DNA of 64,000 nt from NCBI GenBank assembly GCA_031459915.1, contig JAVKHO010000004.1, positions 120,858-184,857 on the forward strand, read 5' to 3'. The stretch is from Candidatus Tepidifontimicrobium thermophilum (lineage in GTDB: Bacteria > Sysuimicrobiota > Sysuimicrobiia > Sysuimicrobiales > Sysuimicrobiaceae). This document shows, one piece after another, positions 14,780 to 46,926 of the stretch (positions are counted from its first letter, which is position 1; every line of letters begins with the position of its first letter). The position numbers were made by a program, and so were the translations under genes. The notes below the pieces were generated by a model. That model ran no database searches. It saw only the letters and a program-made list of their open reading frames with translations, and was not told the DNA's origin.

Positions 14780-16420
14780 CTAGCCCTCCCGCTGTTGGCG
14801 GTACAGGGCTTCCACCTCTTCCAGGGTGCTGGCCTCCCGGGGCGTTTTGTCGGCGCGCACCCGGACGATGCGGGGAAAGCGCAGCGCGTAGCCGGAGTCG
14901 TGCCGGTCGCTACGGGTCACGGCGTCGAACGCCACCTCCAGCACCACCTTCGGCTCCACCGCCTTGAAATGCCCGAAGTCCCGCACCGTGTGGCGGAGGA
15001 AGAACTGCGTGAGCTCCGCTATTTCCGCGTCCTGCAGGCCTGAGTACGCCTTGCCCACCACCCGCAGGCGGTCGCCGTCCCAGACGGCGAAGGTGTAATC
15101 GCTGAGCCACCCCGCCCGTTTGCCGTGGCCGTACTCCGCACCCACCACGACCACGTCCAGGGTTGCCAGCGGCTCCTTCCACTTCAGCCACAGCCCGCCC
15201 CGCCGCCCCGGCCGGTAGGGTGCGTCCAGGCGTTTCACCACCAGGCCCTCGTTGCCACGTTCCCGGGCGTCGCGGAAGGCCTCCCATAAGGAGGCCACGT
15301 CCCGCACCGGTCGGGCGCTCGCCAGGCGGACCGGTCCGGAGAACTCCATGGCCTGGAGGCGCTGGCGGCGTTCGGCCAGGGGCAAATCCATCAGATCCTG
15401 CTCCCCGAGCTTCAGCACGTCGAAGAGGAAGAGGGCCACGGGGACCTGCTCCGCCACCTGGAAAGGATCCAGCCGGCGCAGGCGCTGCTGCAACCGTTGG
15501 AAGGGCGCCGGCCGCTGCCCGGCCCACGCCACCAGCTCGCCGTCCGCGATGTACGCGGGACCCAGTTGCAGCAGGGGCTGTCGGAGCTCTGGGAAGCTGT
15601 CCGTCACGTCGTCCAGGGTGCGCGAGTACAGAGTCACCCGGTCGCCCAGGCGGTGCACCTGCACGCGTACCCCGTCGTACTTGTCCTCCGCCAGCACCTC
15701 CTGTGGGCCGTCGTGGAAGGGCTCCGCGGGGTCCGCGAGGGTGCCAGCCAGCATGAAGCGGAACGGGCGGAAGTAACGGAGGGAGGCGGCCGCCAGCTCG
15801 CCCCGCCGTGCCTGACACGCCACCTCTCCCAGGTCGGAGGACAGCAGGTCCGCGCGGCGTACCGCTCCCGGCCGAGCGCCGAAGGCCTCGGCCACCGCCT
15901 CCTGCAGCAACCCTTCCTTGAGCCCGATCCGCAGGTCACCGGTGAGCACCCGGACCAGGAACTTGGCCTCCATAGGCTGCGCTTGCTCCAGCAGCGCCCG
16001 CAGGACCGCGGCCCGGAACTCTGCGGCTCCCTTCCCGCGCGCGGCCGCCGCGCGCCGCAGCTGCGCGTGGGCCCCCTCAAGGGTCAGGGGCTCGCGGAAG
16101 AGGGGTACCGCGCGGCGCCGGGCCACCAGCTCCGCGGCCACGTCTCCCAGGTCCCCCCACCGCAGGTACAGCTCCGAGACCTCCCGGTCGGTAGCCCCGG
16201 ACAGCTCCTTCAGCACCTCCACGATGGTGGACCAGCCGATCTGCAGTTTGTCGGGATCTCCGGGTGGCAGCACGCGACCGGTCAGGTACGTGCACGCGAC
16301 CCGCAACGCCTCTTCCGGGAGCCGGCGCAGGTAGGCCGCCAGCAGGGTGACCTTCTCGCGTTTCGACGGCGTACGGGACACCGCGTCCAGGGTGGCCGCG
16401 AACTCCGCCCAGCGCGCCAA
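14780..16420 (-). CDS. lig: ATP-dependent DNA ligase (DBD-adenylation-OB, LigB/archaeal-like)
   Basis: EDKYDGVR (motif I), DGELV, FDVL, EGLVVK, WLKWK, LRFPR. AGGAGGT RBS before TTG 16420. Confidence 0.93.
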   Translation of the reverse strand: MARWAEFAATLDAVSRTPSKREKVTLLAAYLRRLPEEALRVACTYLTGRVLPPGDPDKLQIGWSTIVEVLKELSGATDREVSELYLRWGDLGDVAAELVARRRAVPLFREPLTLEGAHAQLRRAAAARGKGAAEFRAAVLRALLEQAQPMEAKFLVRVLTGDLRIGLKEGLLQEAVAEAFGARPGAVRRADLLSSDLGEVACQARRGELAAASLRYFRPFRFMLAGTLADPAEPFHDGPQEVLAEDKYDGVRVQVHRLGDRVTLYSRTLDDVTDSFPELRQPLLQLGPAYIADGELVAWAGQRPAPFQRLQQRLRRLDPFQVAEQVPVALFLFDVLKLGEQDLMDLPLAERRQRLQAMEFSGPVRLASARPVRDVASLWEAFRDARERGNEGLVVKRLDAPYRPGRRGGLWLKWKEPLATLDVVVVGAEYGHGKRAGWLSDYTFAVWDGDRLRVVGKAYSGLQDAEIAELTQFFLRHTVRDFGHFKAVEPKVVLEVAFDAVTRSDRHDSGYALRFPRIVRVRADKTPREASTLEEVEALYRQQREG

Positions 16421-16507
16421 CGCCCACCTCCTGCGGCGCCTCCAGACTAGACGGACCGTCCCGCGGATGCAACGCAGTCCTTTGTGGAATTTCGCCCGGT
16501 CGGGGGA

Positions 16508-16536
16508 TTGACAGCCCGGTTGGCCGGCGCTATTGT
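16508..16536 (+). promoter_or_regulatory. Sigma70-type promoter driving the c-di-GMP riboswitch transcript
   Basis: TTGACA-17 nt-TATTGT, about 22 nt before the aptamer. Confidence 0.75.
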
Positions 16537-16558
16537 GCCGGTACAAAACTGAACCGCG

Positions 16559-16650
16559 CACCGTTCGAAAGGGCAAACCCGCGGTAACGCGGGGACGCAA
16601 AGCCAACGGGGCCTGCGAGGAGCAGGTCGGCCGGGTTGCCGAAAACGGTG
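16559..16650 (+). ncRNA. Cyclic di-GMP-I (GEMM) riboswitch aptamer
   Basis: AAAGGGCAAAC-CCGCG-GTAA-CGCGG-GGACGCAAAGCC..CCTGC-GAGGA-GCAGG..GGTTGCCGAA matches the GEMM-I core. It has a GNRA tetraloop in P2, P1 CACCGT-TCG/CGA-AAACGGTG, and G at the position equivalent to Vc2 G20. Confidence 0.9.
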
Positions 16651-16662
16651 GTTTCGTTTTTG

Positions 16663-16700
16663 GGCCCGTTCGCGCGGTGCGCACGGGCCTTCTGTTTGTT
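16663..16700 (+). terminator. Intrinsic terminator (riboswitch expression platform)
   Basis: GGCCCGT-tc-GCGC-ggt-GCGC-ACGGGCC hairpin followed by TTCTGTTTGTT. Confidence 0.75.
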
Positions 16701-16710
16701 CTGCAGAGGG

Positions 16711-16779
16711 CACCGGGCAGGAAGCGCGCGCGTGCGGACCCTACCCCCCGAGGTCCGCGCGGCGCGCTTCCACCCGGTG
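16711..16779. repeat. Long imperfect inverted repeat (stem-loop)
   Basis: Nested arms CACCGGG/CCCGGTG, GGAAGCGCGC/GCGCGCTTCC and GCGGACC/GGTCCGC. Confidence 0.75.
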
Positions 16780-16828
16780 TGTGTCCGTCGGTATCGTCCG
16801 AGCCTACAACGCGGACTCTCCTCGCGGG

Positions 16829-17656
16829 TCAGCGCGTTCCAGACGCCACCTGCCCGTCACGGGTCAGGGCACGGTCCCGGGCCCTGGCCGGCCCGTGCCC
16901 GAGGCCGTGCACGTACCGGCGGAACGCTCCCTCGACGGCCTCCGAGAGCACCAACCGACTCAACAGCTCGAAGTCCGCCCCCCAGGCCTCCGCGCGCTCC
17001 CGAGCAGCTTCCAGCAGGGAAGCGAAAACGCCGGGCAGCGCGTCCGCCATCTGGGCCGCGGCCTCCGCGGTGCGGTGGTCGGTCCGCACCAGCAACGCCC
17101 CCGTACCGCGGTAGAGCTCCGCCACCGCGTCCACGGCCCAGCGCTGGTCTCCGCCCAACAGCACCCACCGGGGCCGCAGGAAGTCCCGCACCGCCTGGCC
17201 CCGGCGGAGCAGCAGGGGGTTGGAGACCACGCCTGCAGGAAAGCCTTCGCCCCGACGCTCCCGCAGCCGGTCCTGCAGCCACTGGGCAGTCCCCACGGGT
17301 ACGGGGGCCTGCAAGGCCAGCACGCTGCCCGGCGCCAGTCTAGCCACGAGGCTGTCCGCCCACGGCTGCCGCCGCGGGTCCGTGGCCACGCACCACAGCG
17401 CCGCCTCTAGAGGCGGATCCGCCACCAGCTCTAGCCACCCGCAGCCCAGGGCTTCGCGGAACAAGGGCTCCAACCCGGGTTCGAAGAACGGCAGGCGCCC
17501 CTGGCGTAGCGCCGCAAGCCGGGCGCGGTCAGGCTCCACCGCCAGCACGGGACGGCTGGGCCCCGCGAGACAGCTGGCCACCACCAAGCCGGATGCCTCC
17601 ACCCCCACCACCACGACTCGGGTCTCGGCCACCTCGCACCTCCGCGGCAACCTCAA
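16829..17656 (-). CDS. Degenerate, truncated UDP-glucose/GDP-mannose dehydrogenase-like protein
   Basis: LPFFEPGLEPL, PVPVGT, SNPLLLRRGQAVRDFLRPRWVLLG and AEAWGAD resemble Ugd. GxGxxG, the catalytic GGSC motif and the C-terminal domain are absent. Confidence 0.6.
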   Translation of the reverse strand: MRLPRRCEVAETRVVVVGVEASGLVVASCLAGPSRPVLAVEPDRARLAALRQGRLPFFEPGLEPLFREALGCGWLELVADPPLEAALWCVATDPRRQPWADSLVARLAPGSVLALQAPVPVGTAQWLQDRLRERRGEGFPAGVVSNPLLLRRGQAVRDFLRPRWVLLGGDQRWAVDAVAELYRGTGALLVRTDHRTAEAAAQMADALPGVFASLLEAARERAEAWGADFELLSRLVLSEAVEGAFRRYVHGLGHGPARARDRALTRDGQVASGTR

Positions 17657-17675
17657 GCAAGTTCCGTGCCGCGGT

Positions 17676-18815
17676 TCAAAACGAGTCCCACACCACCTCC
17701 CCCGCCACGACCGTGAGGGCTGCCCGACCCTCCACCAGCACGCAAAGGTCCGCGCGCAGCCCCGGTCGCAGCAGCCCGCGATCCTCGAGGCGTAGGACCC
17801 GCGCGGGAGTGGTGGTGGCCATGCGGACGGCGTCCCGCAGGGGCACGCCCCACCGGGTCGCGTTGTCTACCGCTTCGTCCATCCGCAGGACGGTGCCCGC
17901 AAGGGTCCCGTCCGCCAAACGTGGAGCCTCACCGGGCAGGACCGTCGCCAGGGCTCCGCCCAGGCGGTACCGACCCGGCGCAGCCCCCGCAGCGGCCATG
18001 GCGTCGGTCACGAGCGCCATCCGTTCCGATCCCAGCAGCCGGTAGGCCAGGCGGAAGGCCGCCGGGTGCACGTGCACCCCGTCTGCCACCAACCCGCACA
18101 CCCAGGCGCCGTCCTCCAGCGCGGCACCTACGACTCCCGGTTCCCGGTGGTGCAACCCCCGCATGGCGTTGAAGAGGTGGGTGACCATGCCGGCACCGGC
18201 CTCGAAGGCCTCCCGGGCCTGCTGGTAGGTGGCGTCCGAGTGGCCCACCGAGGCGACGACCCCCGCGCCCGCAAGCCACCGCACCAGCTCCAGCCCGCCC
18301 GGCTGTTCCGGAGCCACGGTGACGGCGCGCACAAGACCGCCGAGGTCAGCCACCAGCCGCCTGACGCTCGGATCGCCCGGAGGCACGATCCACCGCGGAT
18401 CGTGCGCCCCGGCCCGCTTCGGGCTGATGGCCGGTCCCTCCAGGTGCAGCCCCACCGGCTGGGCACCGCCTCCCGCGCCCACGGCCACCACCTGCGCGGC
18501 TGCCCGGACAACCTCCGGGGGCGCGGTGATCAACGTGGGCAGGAAGCTGGTAGTGCCCGTGGACGCCAGGTACCGCCGTGCCGCGGCGAACTGTTCGGGG
18601 GTGCAGGAAAGGAAGTCCGCGCCGGCGGCCCCGTTCACCTGCAGGTCCACAAAGCCAGGGACCAACACCCCGTGCGGGAACTCCCGGTCGGCACGGCGTG
18701 GTGTGCCCTCCCTGACCTCTGCGATGAGCCCGTCCTCCACCACCACGTAGCCCGGTACTAGGTCCCGGTCCGGGGCCACCACCACGCCCGCCGCGAGAAC
18801 GAGGCGGCTGATCAC
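17676..18815 (-). CDS. nagA: N-acetylglucosamine-6-phosphate deacetylase
   Basis: PGFVDLQVNG, GLHLEGP..GAH, GHSDA, THLFNAM, DGVHVHP, VTDAM, LAGT. Confidence 0.93.
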   Translation of the reverse strand: MISRLVLAAGVVVAPDRDLVPGYVVVEDGLIAEVREGTPRRADREFPHGVLVPGFVDLQVNGAAGADFLSCTPEQFAAARRYLASTGTTSFLPTLITAPPEVVRAAAQVVAVGAGGGAQPVGLHLEGPAISPKRAGAHDPRWIVPPGDPSVRRLVADLGGLVRAVTVAPEQPGGLELVRWLAGAGVVASVGHSDATYQQAREAFEAGAGMVTHLFNAMRGLHHREPGVVGAALEDGAWVCGLVADGVHVHPAAFRLAYRLLGSERMALVTDAMAAAGAAPGRYRLGGALATVLPGEAPRLADGTLAGTVLRMDEAVDNATRWGVPLRDAVRMATTTPARVLRLEDRGLLRPGLRADLCVLVEGRAALTVVAGEVVWDSF

Positions 18816-19937: not shown

Positions 19938-22379
19938 TCAGGCGCCTTCCGTCACGTACACCACCCGCAGGATCTCCTCGATGGTGGTGACCCCTTCCAG
20001 CACCTTACGGATCCCGTCGTCCCGCATGGTCCGGAAGCCTTCCGAGCGGGCCACCTCCCGGATCTCGTTGGCGGAGGCGCGCCGGACCACCCGCTCCCGG
20101 ATCCGGTCGCTCACCACCAGCAGCTCGTAGACCCCGGTCCGGCCCTTGTAGCCCGTCTGGCGACAGAAGTCGCAGCCGGCACCCCGGTACAGCACCAAGT
20201 CCTTCTCCTCCGCCAGCTCCTCCGACAGGCGCCGCACCGCCTCGCGGGGCGGTCGGTACGCCTCCTTGCACTTCGGGCAGATGGTCCGAGCGAGCCGCTG
20301 GGCCAGGACCCCAATCACCGACGACGTGATGAGGAACGGCTCGATGCCCATGTCCACCAGGCGGGTGAAGGCGCTGGGGGCGTCGTTGGTGTGCAGGGTG
20401 CTGAGCACCAGGTGGCCTGTGAGGGCCGCCTGCACCGCGATCTCCGCCGTCTCCCGGTCGCGGATCTCGCCCACCATGATCACGTCCGGGTCCTGCCGGA
20501 GGATACTCCGCAGCCCCGTGGCGAAGGTGAGCCCCGCCTTGGGGTTCACCTGGACCTGGTTGATGCGCGGGAGCTGGTACTCGACGGGGTCCTCCACTGT
20601 AATGATGTTCTTGTCGAGGGTGTTGATCTTGCTCAGCGTGGCGTACAGGGTCGTGGTCTTCCCGCTGCCGGTGGGTCCGGTCACCAGGATCATCCCGTAG
20701 GGCTTGCTGGCCAGCTCCTCCCACTGGGCCTGGACGTCGCTGGCCATGCCGAGCCGGTTCAGGCTGATGAGGGCGTTGGACTGGTCGAGGATGCGCATCA
20801 CCACCTTCTCCCCGAACATGGTGGGGAGGGTGGAGACGCGGAGGTCGATGTCCCGGCCGTCCACCTTCAGGTGGATCCGGCCGTCCTGAGGACGGCGCCG
20901 CTCCGCGATGTCCAGGTTCGCCACGATCTTGATGCGGGACACCAGGGCCGCCTTGAGGTTCTTCGGCGGCGACATGACGTCGTGGAGCACCCCGTCGATC
21001 CGGTAGCGGACGTGCAGCCCGTTGCGGTGGGGCTCGATGTGGATGTCCGAAGCCCCCTCCCGGATGGCCTGGTCCAGGATCACGTTGACCAGCTTCACCA
21101 CCGGGGCCTCGTCCACCATCTCCCGGAGTCGGTCGATGCTGACCTCCTCCTCGGCCGCCGCCTCCTCCTCCGTGACCACGGCCTGGTCGAAGATGGAGCC
21201 CACGTGGTAGTACTTGTTGATCGCCTGCATCAGCTCGTCCTCGGTGGTGATGCGGGCCTCCACGTCCATCCCGGTGACGAGCCGCACGTCGTCCAAGGCC
21301 AGCAGGTTCAGGGGATCCACCAGGGCCACCAGGAGGCGGTCCCCGTTCCGGCCGAAGGCCAGCACCTTGTGACGCGAGGCGATGTGCTGGGGTACCAGCC
21401 GTACCACCTCCGGGTCCACGGGGGTGTTGCTCAGGCTCACGTACGGGTAGCCCCACTGTACCCCGATGGCCTTCGCCAGGTCCTCCTCCGCGATCAGCCC
21501 CATGCGGACCAGGATGCGGCCCAGCCGCTCGCCGGTGCGGGCCTGGATCTCCAGGGCCTGCTGCAGCTGCGCTTCGTTCAGCAGCCCCATGCGGACCAGG
21601 ATGCCGCCCAGGGCTTCCCGCCGGACCAGGGTGGGCGCACCGGGACGCGCGGCGGCTCGGGGTCCGGAAGGAGGTGCTGGGGGAGTTGAAGCCGCCGGGT
21701 CCGGCACCGGCAGGGAGGCCGCAGAAGGCGGCGCGCCTGGCTCGTGCTGCACGGGCCGCTCGAACGTCTCGCGGGCCGGCACTTCGGCGGAACTCCGTTG
21801 GGCGGTCTCGGCCTGGCCCTGGGCTAGGTGCTCGAGTGCGGCGGCAGCCTCGAAGGGCGCCTGCGCCGCCTCCGGCCTCGGGGGGACCTCCCCTACGATC
21901 GGAGCGGCTTCCCCGTGCTGCTCCTCAGCCGGTTCGGGCGCCGGCCCCGGCTCTCCCGTCGCTGGGGACGGTTGGGCGTCCAGCCCACGGGCCGGTGCCG
22001 GGTGGCCGTCCGCCCTCGCTTCCAGGGCTTCGGCGCGCTCCAGGACGCTGACTGCCTCCTGGGAAAGCCCCAGCCTCTCGTACACCTCACCCAGCGCCAG
22101 GAGGACTACCGCAGCTTCCTTCATGAAGCCCCCGGACTGGTACAGGTCCGCGAGATCCAGATAGTGGATGGGCTCCTCCGGCGCCAGCTCGATGAGCTTT
22201 TTGTACTCCGCGATGGCCTCCTGCAGCCGGCCCGCGTGGGCGTGCCGGATGGCCTGGTGGTACCGCCACGCGCACTCCAGGGTCTGGTTGCCCGCAGGGA
22301 TCCCCAAAGATGCCTTGTACTCCCGGAGGGCAGCCAGCTCGGCCTCCGCCTGCTCGGCCTTCGTCCCGCTTGCCTTCAT
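19938..22379 (-). CDS. pilB: Type IV pilus extension ATPase PilB with N-terminal TPR, Pro/Ala linker and MshEN domain
   Basis: ASDIHIEP, LDIAERRRPQDG, GPTGSGKTTT, TVEDPVEY, LRQDPDVIMVGEIRD, TGHLVLSTLH, tetracysteine CPKC/CDFC. GGAGAGG RBS before ATG 22379 (alternative GTG start at 22403). Confidence 0.95.
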   Translation of the reverse strand: MKASGTKAEQAEAELAALREYKASLGIPAGNQTLECAWRYHQAIRHAHAGRLQEAIAEYKKLIELAPEEPIHYLDLADLYQSGGFMKEAAVVLLALGEVYERLGLSQEAVSVLERAEALEARADGHPAPARGLDAQPSPATGEPGPAPEPAEEQHGEAAPIVGEVPPRPEAAQAPFEAAAALEHLAQGQAETAQRSSAEVPARETFERPVQHEPGAPPSAASLPVPDPAASTPPAPPSGPRAAARPGAPTLVRREALGGILVRMGLLNEAQLQQALEIQARTGERLGRILVRMGLIAEEDLAKAIGVQWGYPYVSLSNTPVDPEVVRLVPQHIASRHKVLAFGRNGDRLLVALVDPLNLLALDDVRLVTGMDVEARITTEDELMQAINKYYHVGSIFDQAVVTEEEAAAEEEVSIDRLREMVDEAPVVKLVNVILDQAIREGASDIHIEPHRNGLHVRYRIDGVLHDVMSPPKNLKAALVSRIKIVANLDIAERRRPQDGRIHLKVDGRDIDLRVSTLPTMFGEKVVMRILDQSNALISLNRLGMASDVQAQWEELASKPYGMILVTGPTGSGKTTTLYATLSKINTLDKNIITVEDPVEYQLPRINQVQVNPKAGLTFATGLRSILRQDPDVIMVGEIRDRETAEIAVQAALTGHLVLSTLHTNDAPSAFTRLVDMGIEPFLITSSVIGVLAQRLARTICPKCKEAYRPPREAVRRLSEELAEEKDLVLYRGAGCDFCRQTGYKGRTGVYELLVVSDRIRERVVRRASANEIREVARSEGFRTMRDDGIRKVLEGVTTIEEILRVVYVTEGA

Positions 22380-22609
22380 GGTCCTCTCCCGGCTCCTCGC
22401 CACCGGTGCCCCCCGGCCACCGCCGTCCTTGCTCCCAGTCTACGCGAAGAGCAAGTATTGTACCCCGCCGCCAGCCGCCCCAGACCGCGGGCCCGGGGTT
22501 GACCGGAAAGTAGCACAGGTCCCCGGGGCCCGCAAGCCAACCCGATAGCCTGGAACGAAACTTGCTCCAACAGCCCCCTGAAGGACCTCACCGGGGCAGG
22601 AGGGAAGTG

Positions 22610-43546: not shown

Positions 43547-45373
<1,827 letters not shown>

Positions 45374-45431
45374 AGACGCCTCCCGCCCCGAGACCGACGG
45401 CCGCCGGGGCAACCGGTCTCGTAGCCGCGGC

Positions 45432-46562
45432 CTACTGGCCGGCGGCTGCGGGCTCCGCCTCGCGGCTCACCACGAACTCCTTCTCCAGCGCCTCCAGACG
45501 CGCCACGATCCCTCCGTACTCCAGCTCCGACATGGGCAGCATGGCCGGCCCGAAGAATCCCTGCCGGCGCATCTCCAGGGCCTTGGCCGCCGCGCGGTCG
45601 CGCACGTGGGCCCAGAAGGGGTCCGCGAACAGGTCCGTCGGCTCGGTGAACTTCCCCTCGTGTACGGAGAAGGCGAGGCCCGAGACCATGGGCACGCAGA
45701 AGAAGGTGCTGGCAGGGGTGTTGATGGGCACCGGCATCAGCGGCAGGTTGTGGCTGCCGCGGGTGTCCCCGGCCACGAAGGGCACCACGGCGAAGGGTGG
45801 CCCGAACTCCTCCGTGGCCGGGAAGATCTTCTGCACCCGGACCACCGCCACGGGGTCGTCCTTGCCCACGTACCGGCCCGCGATGTTGCGCAGCCGGGTG
45901 GTGGACACCGCGGCCGCCTGCTCCTGCGGGTACTTCCGGGACCAGATGGACTCGATGACGTAGCGGTGGGTGTCCCGGAGCAGCGCCGCGATGTCGTACA
46001 GGCGCTCGGGCGCGTCCAGGGTGATGGTCCGGTCCCCCTCCGTGTAGTCCACGTCCATGATGCGGAACCGGAAGCCCTGGTGGAGGTCCGGGGACAGCAG
46101 CAGGCCGGAGGAGTACATGGGATCCGCGAAGGCGAGGTACAGGGGCAGGTTGAAGGCGCCGGGCTCGGTCTTGTCCGCGGCGAATACCACCACGGCTTCG
46201 TTGGGGCGCTCTTCGAACTCCATCTCCGCCGCGGCGGGCCCCAGGCCCCGTACGTTGCCCGAAAAGGCGTCCTTCAGCAAGTCCTGGCCCGCGCCGTACA
46301 GCCCCTGCCGTTTGGCCACCTCCGCGCCTGCCCGGAACGCCTCCCAGGCGAGGGCGTGCACGTCCGGATGTCCCACCCCGTGGTGGTGGGACAGGATCAG
46401 GCACACGTCATCCCCCGTGTGGGCCACGTAAGCGTCTACCAGCAGCTTGCCGCGCTCGGCAAACACACGCTCCCGCACCACTTCTAGGACCCGCTGGCTG
46501 GGCAGGGTGTGTCCGCCCACGCTGCCGATGTCGGCCTTGATCACGCTCAGGGTGGTGCGCAT
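45432..46562 (-). CDS. fbp: Fructose-1,6-bisphosphate aldolase/phosphatase (class V, archaeal-type)
   Basis: VIKADIGSVGGH, GDD, GLYGAGQDLLKDAFSGNVRGLGP, DKTEPGAFN, YVGKDDP, RGSH, LEY. Confidence 0.96.
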   Translation of the reverse strand: MRTTLSVIKADIGSVGGHTLPSQRVLEVVRERVFAERGKLLVDAYVAHTGDDVCLILSHHHGVGHPDVHALAWEAFRAGAEVAKRQGLYGAGQDLLKDAFSGNVRGLGPAAAEMEFEERPNEAVVVFAADKTEPGAFNLPLYLAFADPMYSSGLLLSPDLHQGFRFRIMDVDYTEGDRTITLDAPERLYDIAALLRDTHRYVIESIWSRKYPQEQAAAVSTTRLRNIAGRYVGKDDPVAVVRVQKIFPATEEFGPPFAVVPFVAGDTRGSHNLPLMPVPINTPASTFFCVPMVSGLAFSVHEGKFTEPTDLFADPFWAHVRDRAAAKALEMRRQGFFGPAMLPMSELEYGGIVARLEALEKEFVVSREAEPAAAGQ

Positions 46563-46699
46563 ACGCTCCCCTCCTTTCGCGCACACGGATTTCCTGTCAG
46601 CCCGCAAAAAGCGGGGCCGGGGGTCGGTTGACTTTCTCGTGGGACCCTCGCGCTCAGGTGGGACGCCCAGCGCGACGGTCAGCTCAGGACGGCGCCGGC

Positions 46700-46881
46700 C
46701 GGCAGCCTTTTGTCCCGGGGTCGCCCCCGGGCTTTGTCAGCTACCTTTTGCGCACCGGATGGGTTTCCGGAGGCCCGCCGGTGGGCCTGGGGTCACCCGC
46801 CGAGCAGGAAGCCAGAGCTTCCCGTCGAGATCCCCCGCCTCGTCAACCCGCAGCCCACACAGGCTGCGGGTCCTGGCGCTG
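46700..46881 (-). ncRNA. glmS ribozyme (GlcN6P-activated self-cleaving riboswitch)
   Basis: The minus strand reads A/GCGCCAGGAC-CCGCAGCC-loop-GGCTGCGG-GTTGACGAGG..ATCTCGA-hairpin-TCGGCGGGTG..ACAAAG-CCCGGGG-GCGA-CCCCGGG-ACAAA. The conserved core and the GNRA-capped P4.1 are present. Predicted cleavage is between 46880 and 46879. Confidence 0.9.
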
Positions 46882-46926
46882 CAACCCAACTGTTCCCCTC
46901 TCACCTCCCTGACAAGCCCTGCCTGT

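Follow-up and report, generated by a model that had tools for sequence, protein, structure and literature searches.

The window analysed here is a stretch of 64,000 nucleotides in which a plus-strand riboswitch lies between two minus-strand genes. On one side, and divergent from it, is an ATP-dependent DNA ligase (14780-16420, minus strand; Pfam PF01068, PF04675 and PF04679); this minus-strand ligase is the gene behind the promoter of the riboswitch, a correction to the earlier note on this DNA. On the other side, the first convergent gene is a truncated UDP-glucose-dehydrogenase-like (ugd-like) gene (16829-17632, minus strand) that matches only the N-terminal domain PF03721. It is followed by a nagA-like amidohydrolase (17676-18815, minus strand; PF01979), which is present in all 14 loci compared below, and beyond this by a convergent adh and an MshEN-bearing pilB. 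Three overlapping plus-strand open reading frames (ORFs) behind the switch have no Pfam match and no other plus-strand gene appears before a DnaB-like ORF near 22600, so the earlier claim that no credible plus-strand gene follows for about 6 kb stands. Read-through transcripts, which had been described as running into a set of genes that begins with pilB, would first reach the ugd-like gene, whose 3' end is at 16829, and pilB lies 3.2 kb further on.

Two of these neighbors have features of their own. By eye, the nucleotide-binding motif of the ugd-like gene (16829-17632) is degenerate; the frame is open in seven genomes of the genus, at 53-88% identity, and the gene may be a retained pseudo-enzyme. 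PilB (window 19938-22403) carries N-terminal TPR-like repeats ahead of MshEN, and its gene points away from pilT and pilC, from which the DnaB-like gene separates it.

The unit opens with a sigma-70-type promoter, TTGACA-17-TATTGT (16508-16536, plus strand), from which a start site is predicted near 16543. Our promoter scan recovered it at the position given earlier and called it as the sole promoter-like site in the 2.5 kb from 15500 to 18000 (0.0 expected in shuffles); between the aptamer and the output hairpin described below (H3), the scan found no internal promoter-like site. The TTGACA-17-TAnnnT pattern and its 17-nt spacing are retained in all 13 hairpin-bearing loci and in G007, a genome of the genus that has lost the hairpin. 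Back to back with this promoter is a possible divergent promoter for the ligase (TTGCAT-17-TAGTCT, 16444-16472, minus strand), recognized by eye and not called by the scanner.

The promoter leads into a c-di-GMP-I aptamer (16559-16650, plus strand) with helices P1 (16559-65/16644-50), P2 and P3, as delimited by Rfam RF01051 and an alignment of relatives. This alignment comprises 11 of the 13 hairpin-bearing loci, two near-duplicates being excluded. The RF01051 covariance model scores 67.8 bits at 16562-16643 against a gathering cut-off of 35, which confirms the full GEMM-I aptamer that the earlier note had drawn. P1, P2 and P3 are all formable, with 94.8-100% of cells paired per helix in the 11 sequences, and the P2 loop is GUAA, of the GNRA type. 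Across the aptamer span (16556-16650), 81 of 98 columns are invariant and pairwise identity is 92.6%.

The clan sibling c-di-GMP-I-UAU (RF03168) scores 66.1, barely above its own cut-off of 65.9. Its specificity is ruled out: at the two base-recognition positions, to which we take the "UAU" of the name to refer, the model has U in both places and the window G16572 and C16639. We mapped these two bases onto positions G20 and C92 through alignment to the RF03168 model, and both are invariant in 11 of 11 sequences. According to PMC6140456, G20 and C92 read the two guanines of c-di-GMP and an A at position 20 marks cGAMP binders; with G16572 in place of that A, specificity for 3',3'-cGAMP (GEMM-Ib) is likewise ruled out. 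Overall, the score, helices and recognition bases support a genuine predicted member of c-di-GMP-I, in a genome that carries 11 GGDEF matches. A second c-di-GMP-I riboswitch of this genome (L039:6300-7100; G000 contig C8) lies ahead of a prepilin-like gene run. This pilin-type riboswitch has a terminator-like hairpin and orthologues in G001 and G006.

Behind the aptamer is a predicted intrinsic terminator (16663-16700, plus strand), with its stem at 16663-16689 and an imperfect U tail (6 U in 8 here; 3-6 U in 8 over the 11 sequences). Its stability is -16.7 to -21.5 kcal/mol in 13 loci. Within the stem, 16 of 27 columns are invariant (81.7% pairwise identity, 11 sequences) and two pairs are altered on both sides, although these changes are common to related sequences and represent few events. 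The stem at 16663-16689 is real; a strict terminator scanner did not call it. The 5' strand of an antiterminator, GCGCACCG (16556-16563, plus strand), overlaps the 5' strand of P1 and is complementary to a 3' strand within the terminator, CGGTGCGC (16675-16682, plus strand). Both sequences are as previously given, and the helix pairs in 11 of 11 aligned sequences; it hardly varies, with seven pairs invariant and one changing from G-C to G-U.

Together, these elements form a predicted transcriptional OFF switch, in which the terminator excludes an antiterminator that shares bases with P1. Without ligand, 16556-16563 would pair with 16675-16682, the terminator would be blocked and polymerase would transcribe H3. 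With c-di-GMP, P1 would hold 16559-16565, the terminator would form and transcription would stop ahead of H3. The hairpin RNA would, on this model, be made only at low c-di-GMP. Constrained folding at 37 C, an equilibrium calculation that takes no account of kinetics, finds the antiterminator state the more stable in every one of the 11 sequences, by 1.8-14.8 kcal/mol relative to aptamer plus terminator. The two folds are also mutually exclusive in all 11, the terminator forming with the aptamer fold and not with the antiterminator. The OFF logic of the earlier note is predicted by folding in every aligned sequence, with the limits that the unconstrained fold already contains the terminator in two of them, that one tail has just 3 U in 8, and that at 65 C the lead of the antiterminator vanishes in one. 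The converse design, an ON switch acting through a scanner-called hairpin at 16633-16654 and its U run, is rejected because that hairpin is too weak as a terminator (-3.4 to -9.2 kcal/mol). In the window it reaches -4.0 kcal/mol with mostly G-U pairs, and it forms within the ligand-free fold.

Downstream of the switch lies an invariant hairpin (16720-16771) that the earlier note overlooked. It is the 20-bp core, with one bulge (16730), of the output hairpin H3 (16711-16779, plus strand; about -59 kcal/mol), which also has a covarying 7-bp outer stem and an 11-nt, C-rich, invariant loop, CUACCCCCCGA (16741-16751). The core starts twenty bases beyond the terminator. In the 11 sequences, 50 of its 51 columns at 16720-16770 are invariant (99.6% pairwise identity) and the sole change is the bulged base, while the linker ahead of H3 has 4 of 21 columns invariant and 61.6% pairwise identity. 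At four-fold sites of nagA, five of six relatives share 36-46% identity with this genome (the closest shares 75%), which places the lineages far apart at neutral sites. The unpaired H3 loop is invariant, whereas the loops of P3 and of the terminator vary. Within the outer stem, one pair changes from A-U to G-C; the core pairs give no covariation support, as 19 of 20 never vary. H3 folds better on the plus than on the minus strand in 13 of 13 loci, by just 0.9-5.4 kcal/mol. No intrinsic terminator is found 3' of H3 on the plus strand, so read-through may continue antisense into the ugd-like gene 50 nt later.

H3 is single-copy and confined to the genus as far as these searches reach. It occurs in seven of eight genus genomes. 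None of the 86 remaining genomes of the order carries it with up to 3 mismatches allowed, and a DNA search across 94 genomes returned only short, weak matches outside the genus. An exact 25-mer of H3 retrieves 6 records among 185,579 species genomes and a 21-mer retrieves none among viral contigs. At E up to 10, an Rfam search returned nothing credible and H3 matched no Rfam family.

The layout of the locus is likewise conserved. All seven other genus genomes match the intergenic region, and a metagenome scan adds six loci, three of which are near-copies of genomes already included. The 3' end of nagA is the sole constant convergent neighbor, faced by the unit in all 14 loci, and in 12 of these the ugd-like gene lies in between. 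No sense gene stands behind the switch in any of the 14, and the orphan orientation reported earlier is borne out. A gene lost downstream, for which a comparison of relatives had been suggested, was not found in these loci, and since the same layout recurs in all of them, a recent, species-specific deletion relic is rejected. The link to pilB is not supported. The gene follows adh in this window, G001 and G004 and does not do so in G003, G007 and L053, so that adjacency holds in three of six informative loci; the remaining eight do not extend far enough to show it. Other genes take its place in G003 and G007. The ugd-like gene is absent from G007 and L053, and H3 persists in L053.

Two exceptions bear on the history of the unit. 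Genomes G010 and G011, from the sister genus, have nothing inserted between nagA and the ligase; either this genus acquired the unit and the ugd-like gene or the sister genus lost them. In G007 (L038:6849-6970; 96% complete), the promoter is intact and two thirds of the aptamer is kept; the aptamer 3' end, terminator, H3 and ugd-like gene are gone. The junction fits a single deletion reaching the ugd-like start, with an alignment score of 52.5, partly due to nagA sequence, against a shuffled maximum of 48. Having lost most of the unit, G007 indicates that it is dispensable there and provides a natural negative control.

Reads offer weak support for plus-strand transcription of the unit. We mapped four RNA runs to 15900-17700 at 90% likeness, reading 3-5% of each raw run. 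Run X3 yields 10 reads in one orientation, 8 of them at 99% identity or more, confined to about 16555-16654, with none elsewhere in the 1.8 kb. Run X5 yields 21 reads, in which those of the ligase and ugd-like gene are opposite in mate orientation to those of the aptamer and of 16693-16753; this contrast places the aptamer and 16693-16753 reads on the plus strand, with the caveat that 12 aptamer reads carry letters of the other, pilin-type aptamer. By subtraction, H3 is covered in X5 by about four partial reads, and at this very low depth no plus-orientation reads were seen beyond 16753. In X1, a contig spanning 16407-17571 has a mean depth of 29.6, against 2.2 for the ligase contig, a difference that shows neither strand nor level. 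Run X4 has zero reads and carries no weight either way.

What, then, is the switch for? The account we prefer, to which we give about an even chance, is a stand-alone, riboswitch-gated gene for a non-coding RNA: a hairpin RNA produced at low c-di-GMP and likely acting in trans. A cis-antisense RNA keeps its complementarity whatever its sequence, so the invariance of H3 points to an external partner over plain antisense interference and would make H3 the output of the switch. The earlier note had offered an antisense or interfering RNA, or a trans-acting small RNA; H3 invariance favors the second of these, and the proposed tie to pilB is not supported. One possibility is that the exposed C-rich loop of H3 mediates its action, whether by base-pairing to ribosome-binding regions rich in G or by titrating a protein, although pairing by the loop alone leaves the invariant 20-bp stem unexplained.

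Searches for an RNA target found none above background. A duplex scan of the H3 loop against 2516 predicted start regions returned only generic G-rich matches with no standout, and the pattern of loop complement plus start is not enriched, with 253 in eight genus genomes and 261 in the reversed control. The longest complements to the H3 stem arms fall on non-coding strands, and no sense copy of H3 was found to mark other leaders. The one recurring match among those listed, at an apparent fabH-fabD junction (names assigned by eye), is set aside: it is also in G007, which has no H3, and is explained by the last codons and stop of the upstream gene. A 13-nt loop match to a 23S intron is treated as chance because 8 13-mer matches to the same 24-nt stretch occur elsewhere in the genome. 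The intron itself (L167; G000 contig C2, about 99800-100230) appears by eye to be a group I intron in the 23S rRNA gene with a homing-endonuclease-like ORF. Hfq was not found in G000, G004 or G007; RNase III is present in all three.

Alternatively, the transcript could act in cis, by antisense or transcriptional interference on the 3' ends of nagA and the ugd-like gene (not pilB), lowering their expression at low c-di-GMP. We regard this as unlikely. The convergent orientation in 14 of 14 loci and an H3 with no terminator behind it suit such a role, and it is plausible that, when c-di-GMP is high, enzymes acting on amino sugars and UDP-sugars contribute to polysaccharide synthesis. Two studies describe precedents, the SAM-box antisense riboswitch at ubiG-mccBA of Clostridium acetobutylicum (PMC2566862) and the B12-controlled AspocR of Listeria (PMC5449094). 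Like the unit here, which is convergent to the 3' end of a gene in all 14 loci, both have their own promoter and face a gene 3' end. In those systems the ligand is metabolically tied to the targets and antisense action was shown, whereas here such a tie is only presumed, the convergent gene varies and an invariant module comes after the terminator. Interference of this kind needs no invariant H3 sequence; moreover, the first convergent gene differs (ugd-like in 12 loci, nagA in two), pilB is adjacent in just half of the six informative loci, and zero plus-orientation reads extend past 16753, albeit at very low depth.

A different possibility, which we consider quite improbable, is that the short, terminated aptamer RNA is itself the product, as a ligand-stabilized small RNA or a c-di-GMP buffer, and that H3 belongs to the minus strand as an mRNA 3' end, processing or stability element. 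The X3 reads look much like this, since the 8 of highest identity all fall within the aptamer, and H3 is very stable on the minus strand too. Ligand-stabilized, aptamer-ended small RNAs of Vc2 are described in 10.1101/617340. The conserved antiterminator would nevertheless make no sense without transcription of something beyond it; both G-U pairing and the X5 reads favor H3 on the plus strand, and no U tract lies behind it on the minus strand.

There is only a slim chance that the unit is a relic, once the leader of a gene that disappeared before diversification of the genus, and kept by chance. In favor of this are the genome G009, in which a similar aptamer, terminator and C-rich-loop hairpin open a three-aptamer leader before a gene, the direct adjacency of nagA and ligase in G010 and G011, and the loss of most of the unit in G007. 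Conservation of the promoter, aptamer, both switch helices and H3 far above neutral sites largely refutes this explanation, and an origin as a leader is in any case compatible with a present function. The weakest proposal, and a highly improbable one, is a small peptide translated from a GTG at 16732, inside H3: this GTG, preceded at a distance of 7 nt by a weak run of purines, recurs in 13 of 13 loci with the first 13 codons identical, but those codons show zero synonymous change, ORF length varies between 16 and 269 codons across the 13 loci without a common stop, and the start and ribosome-binding site are buried in the H3 hairpin.

We return to the gated trans-acting RNA, for which known systems supply several points of comparison. 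The element is real, conserved and unusual, and riboswitch-controlled non-coding RNAs as such are already known, with AspocR, Rli55 and SreA treated in PMC5449094. The working layout is most like that of Rli55 (EutX), the B12 riboswitch of Listeria and Enterococcus that, according to the same paper, is likewise an OFF switch gating a downstream structured RNA with no ORF. The unit here also has no ORF and a conserved RNA module past its terminator; relative to Rli55, its ligand differs and H3 is one long hairpin with a C-rich loop and no Rfam family. This is a resemblance of layout, short of a claim of membership. With the GEMM-I prototype, Vibrio cholerae Vc2, the unit shares an Rfam family and the G20/C92-equivalent bases, and differs in having no downstream ORF.

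Antitoxin RNAs offer another comparison. For C. difficile, PMC11477304 reports RCd11 and RCd12, antitoxin RNAs that likewise have a c-di-GMP-I riboswitch ahead of a non-coding RNA, and an orphan c-di-GMP riboswitch near CD2517. In contrast, the locus here is chromosomal and genus-wide, with no viral contig match and no conserved small toxin-like ORF on the opposite strand. A type I toxin-antitoxin under c-di-GMP control is rejected, as no minus-strand ORF of 15-120 codons is conserved in the 14 loci, and no small ORF of conserved length was found across loci on either strand. RsaE-type small RNAs of Gram-positive bacteria, as described in PMC4152353, also have a C-rich loop that is left unpaired and can bind Shine-Dalgarno regions rich in G; the likeness is one of loop alone, with no sequence relationship and no H3 target found, in a genome where no Hfq was found. 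We found no paper on this hairpin unit in open-licence text. Nor did open-licence literature yield work joining riboswitches with CSP1-3, which we take to be the phylum label.

Across the order, orphan orientation is the exception. The 94 genomes contain 531 c-di-GMP-I matches, with at least one in 93 of them. Frames downstream were scored, with a crude frame score, for aptamers that lie within the extracted loci and were caught by a regular expression. On that basis, a sense frame follows 39 of the 48 non-orthologous aptamers that are last in their array, and 4 more on inspection, while all 12 orthologous rows point into an antisense gene. Four of the five remaining non-sense aptamers belong to a single genus, g6.

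The g6 aptamers (L154-L159; G090, G091, G058, G019, G093 and G014) form a second lineage with its own promoter and no long sense ORF. In six of seven g6 genomes the aptamer is followed, after a spacer that varies, by a conserved block 103-164 nt downstream that includes a C-rich, anti-Shine-Dalgarno-like run and a terminator-like hairpin. The block may instead end a small ORF, as short frames occur in most copies, with one synonymous change. Tentatively, and with somewhat less than even confidence, we propose that the sole product of the c-di-GMP riboswitch in the window is an RNA that acts in trans without a chaperone. It would be the invariant 20-bp hairpin and its C-rich loop, produced when c-di-GMP is low, and would silence G-rich ribosome-binding sites or titrate a protein; an aptamer that has no long ORF behind it and a conserved C-rich block may have evolved twice, the other time in a different family of the order.

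The three tandem c-di-GMP-I aptamers of G009 (L083:5000-5700) offer a possible origin for the unit of the window: the first resembles the aptamer here, a terminator and a hairpin whose loop has seven C come next, and a leader of this kind is a possible ancestor. A looser H3 pattern matches G009 (L091) beside an aptamer. As that pattern was designed after G009 had been seen, the resemblance is a lead only; its match rate is near control, and the 10 other non-H3 matches (9 Rfam-scanned, all 10 read) have no riboswitch and lie mostly in coding sequence.

Riboswitches for c-di-GMP usually act on the gene directly behind them. If the proposed output is correct, c-di-GMP would act on remote targets through a free RNA, with its sign inverted and no protein regulator involved, in a lineage where no Hfq was found in the three genomes searched. 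Because the unit is only about 240 nt long, both switching and partner pull-down are testable in vitro without culturing the organism.

Finally, two observations stand apart from the unit. In X3, four reads have a head-to-tail junction between 16654 and 16555, and the 8 high-identity reads stay within this 100-nt span; for the other aptamer type, X5 and X1 contain reads and a contig with the aptamer 3' end joined to the 5' start at differing junctions. These head-to-tail reads could be circularized aptamer, reverse-transcriptase switching or tandem aptamers in DNA. The genome encodes RtcB, and among the matches listed in a literature search there were no bacterial circular aptamers. Elsewhere in the window, a glmS ribozyme (46691-46891, minus strand; 46.5 bits) is separated from the glmS-like gene (43547-45412) by an ORF at 45432-46607.
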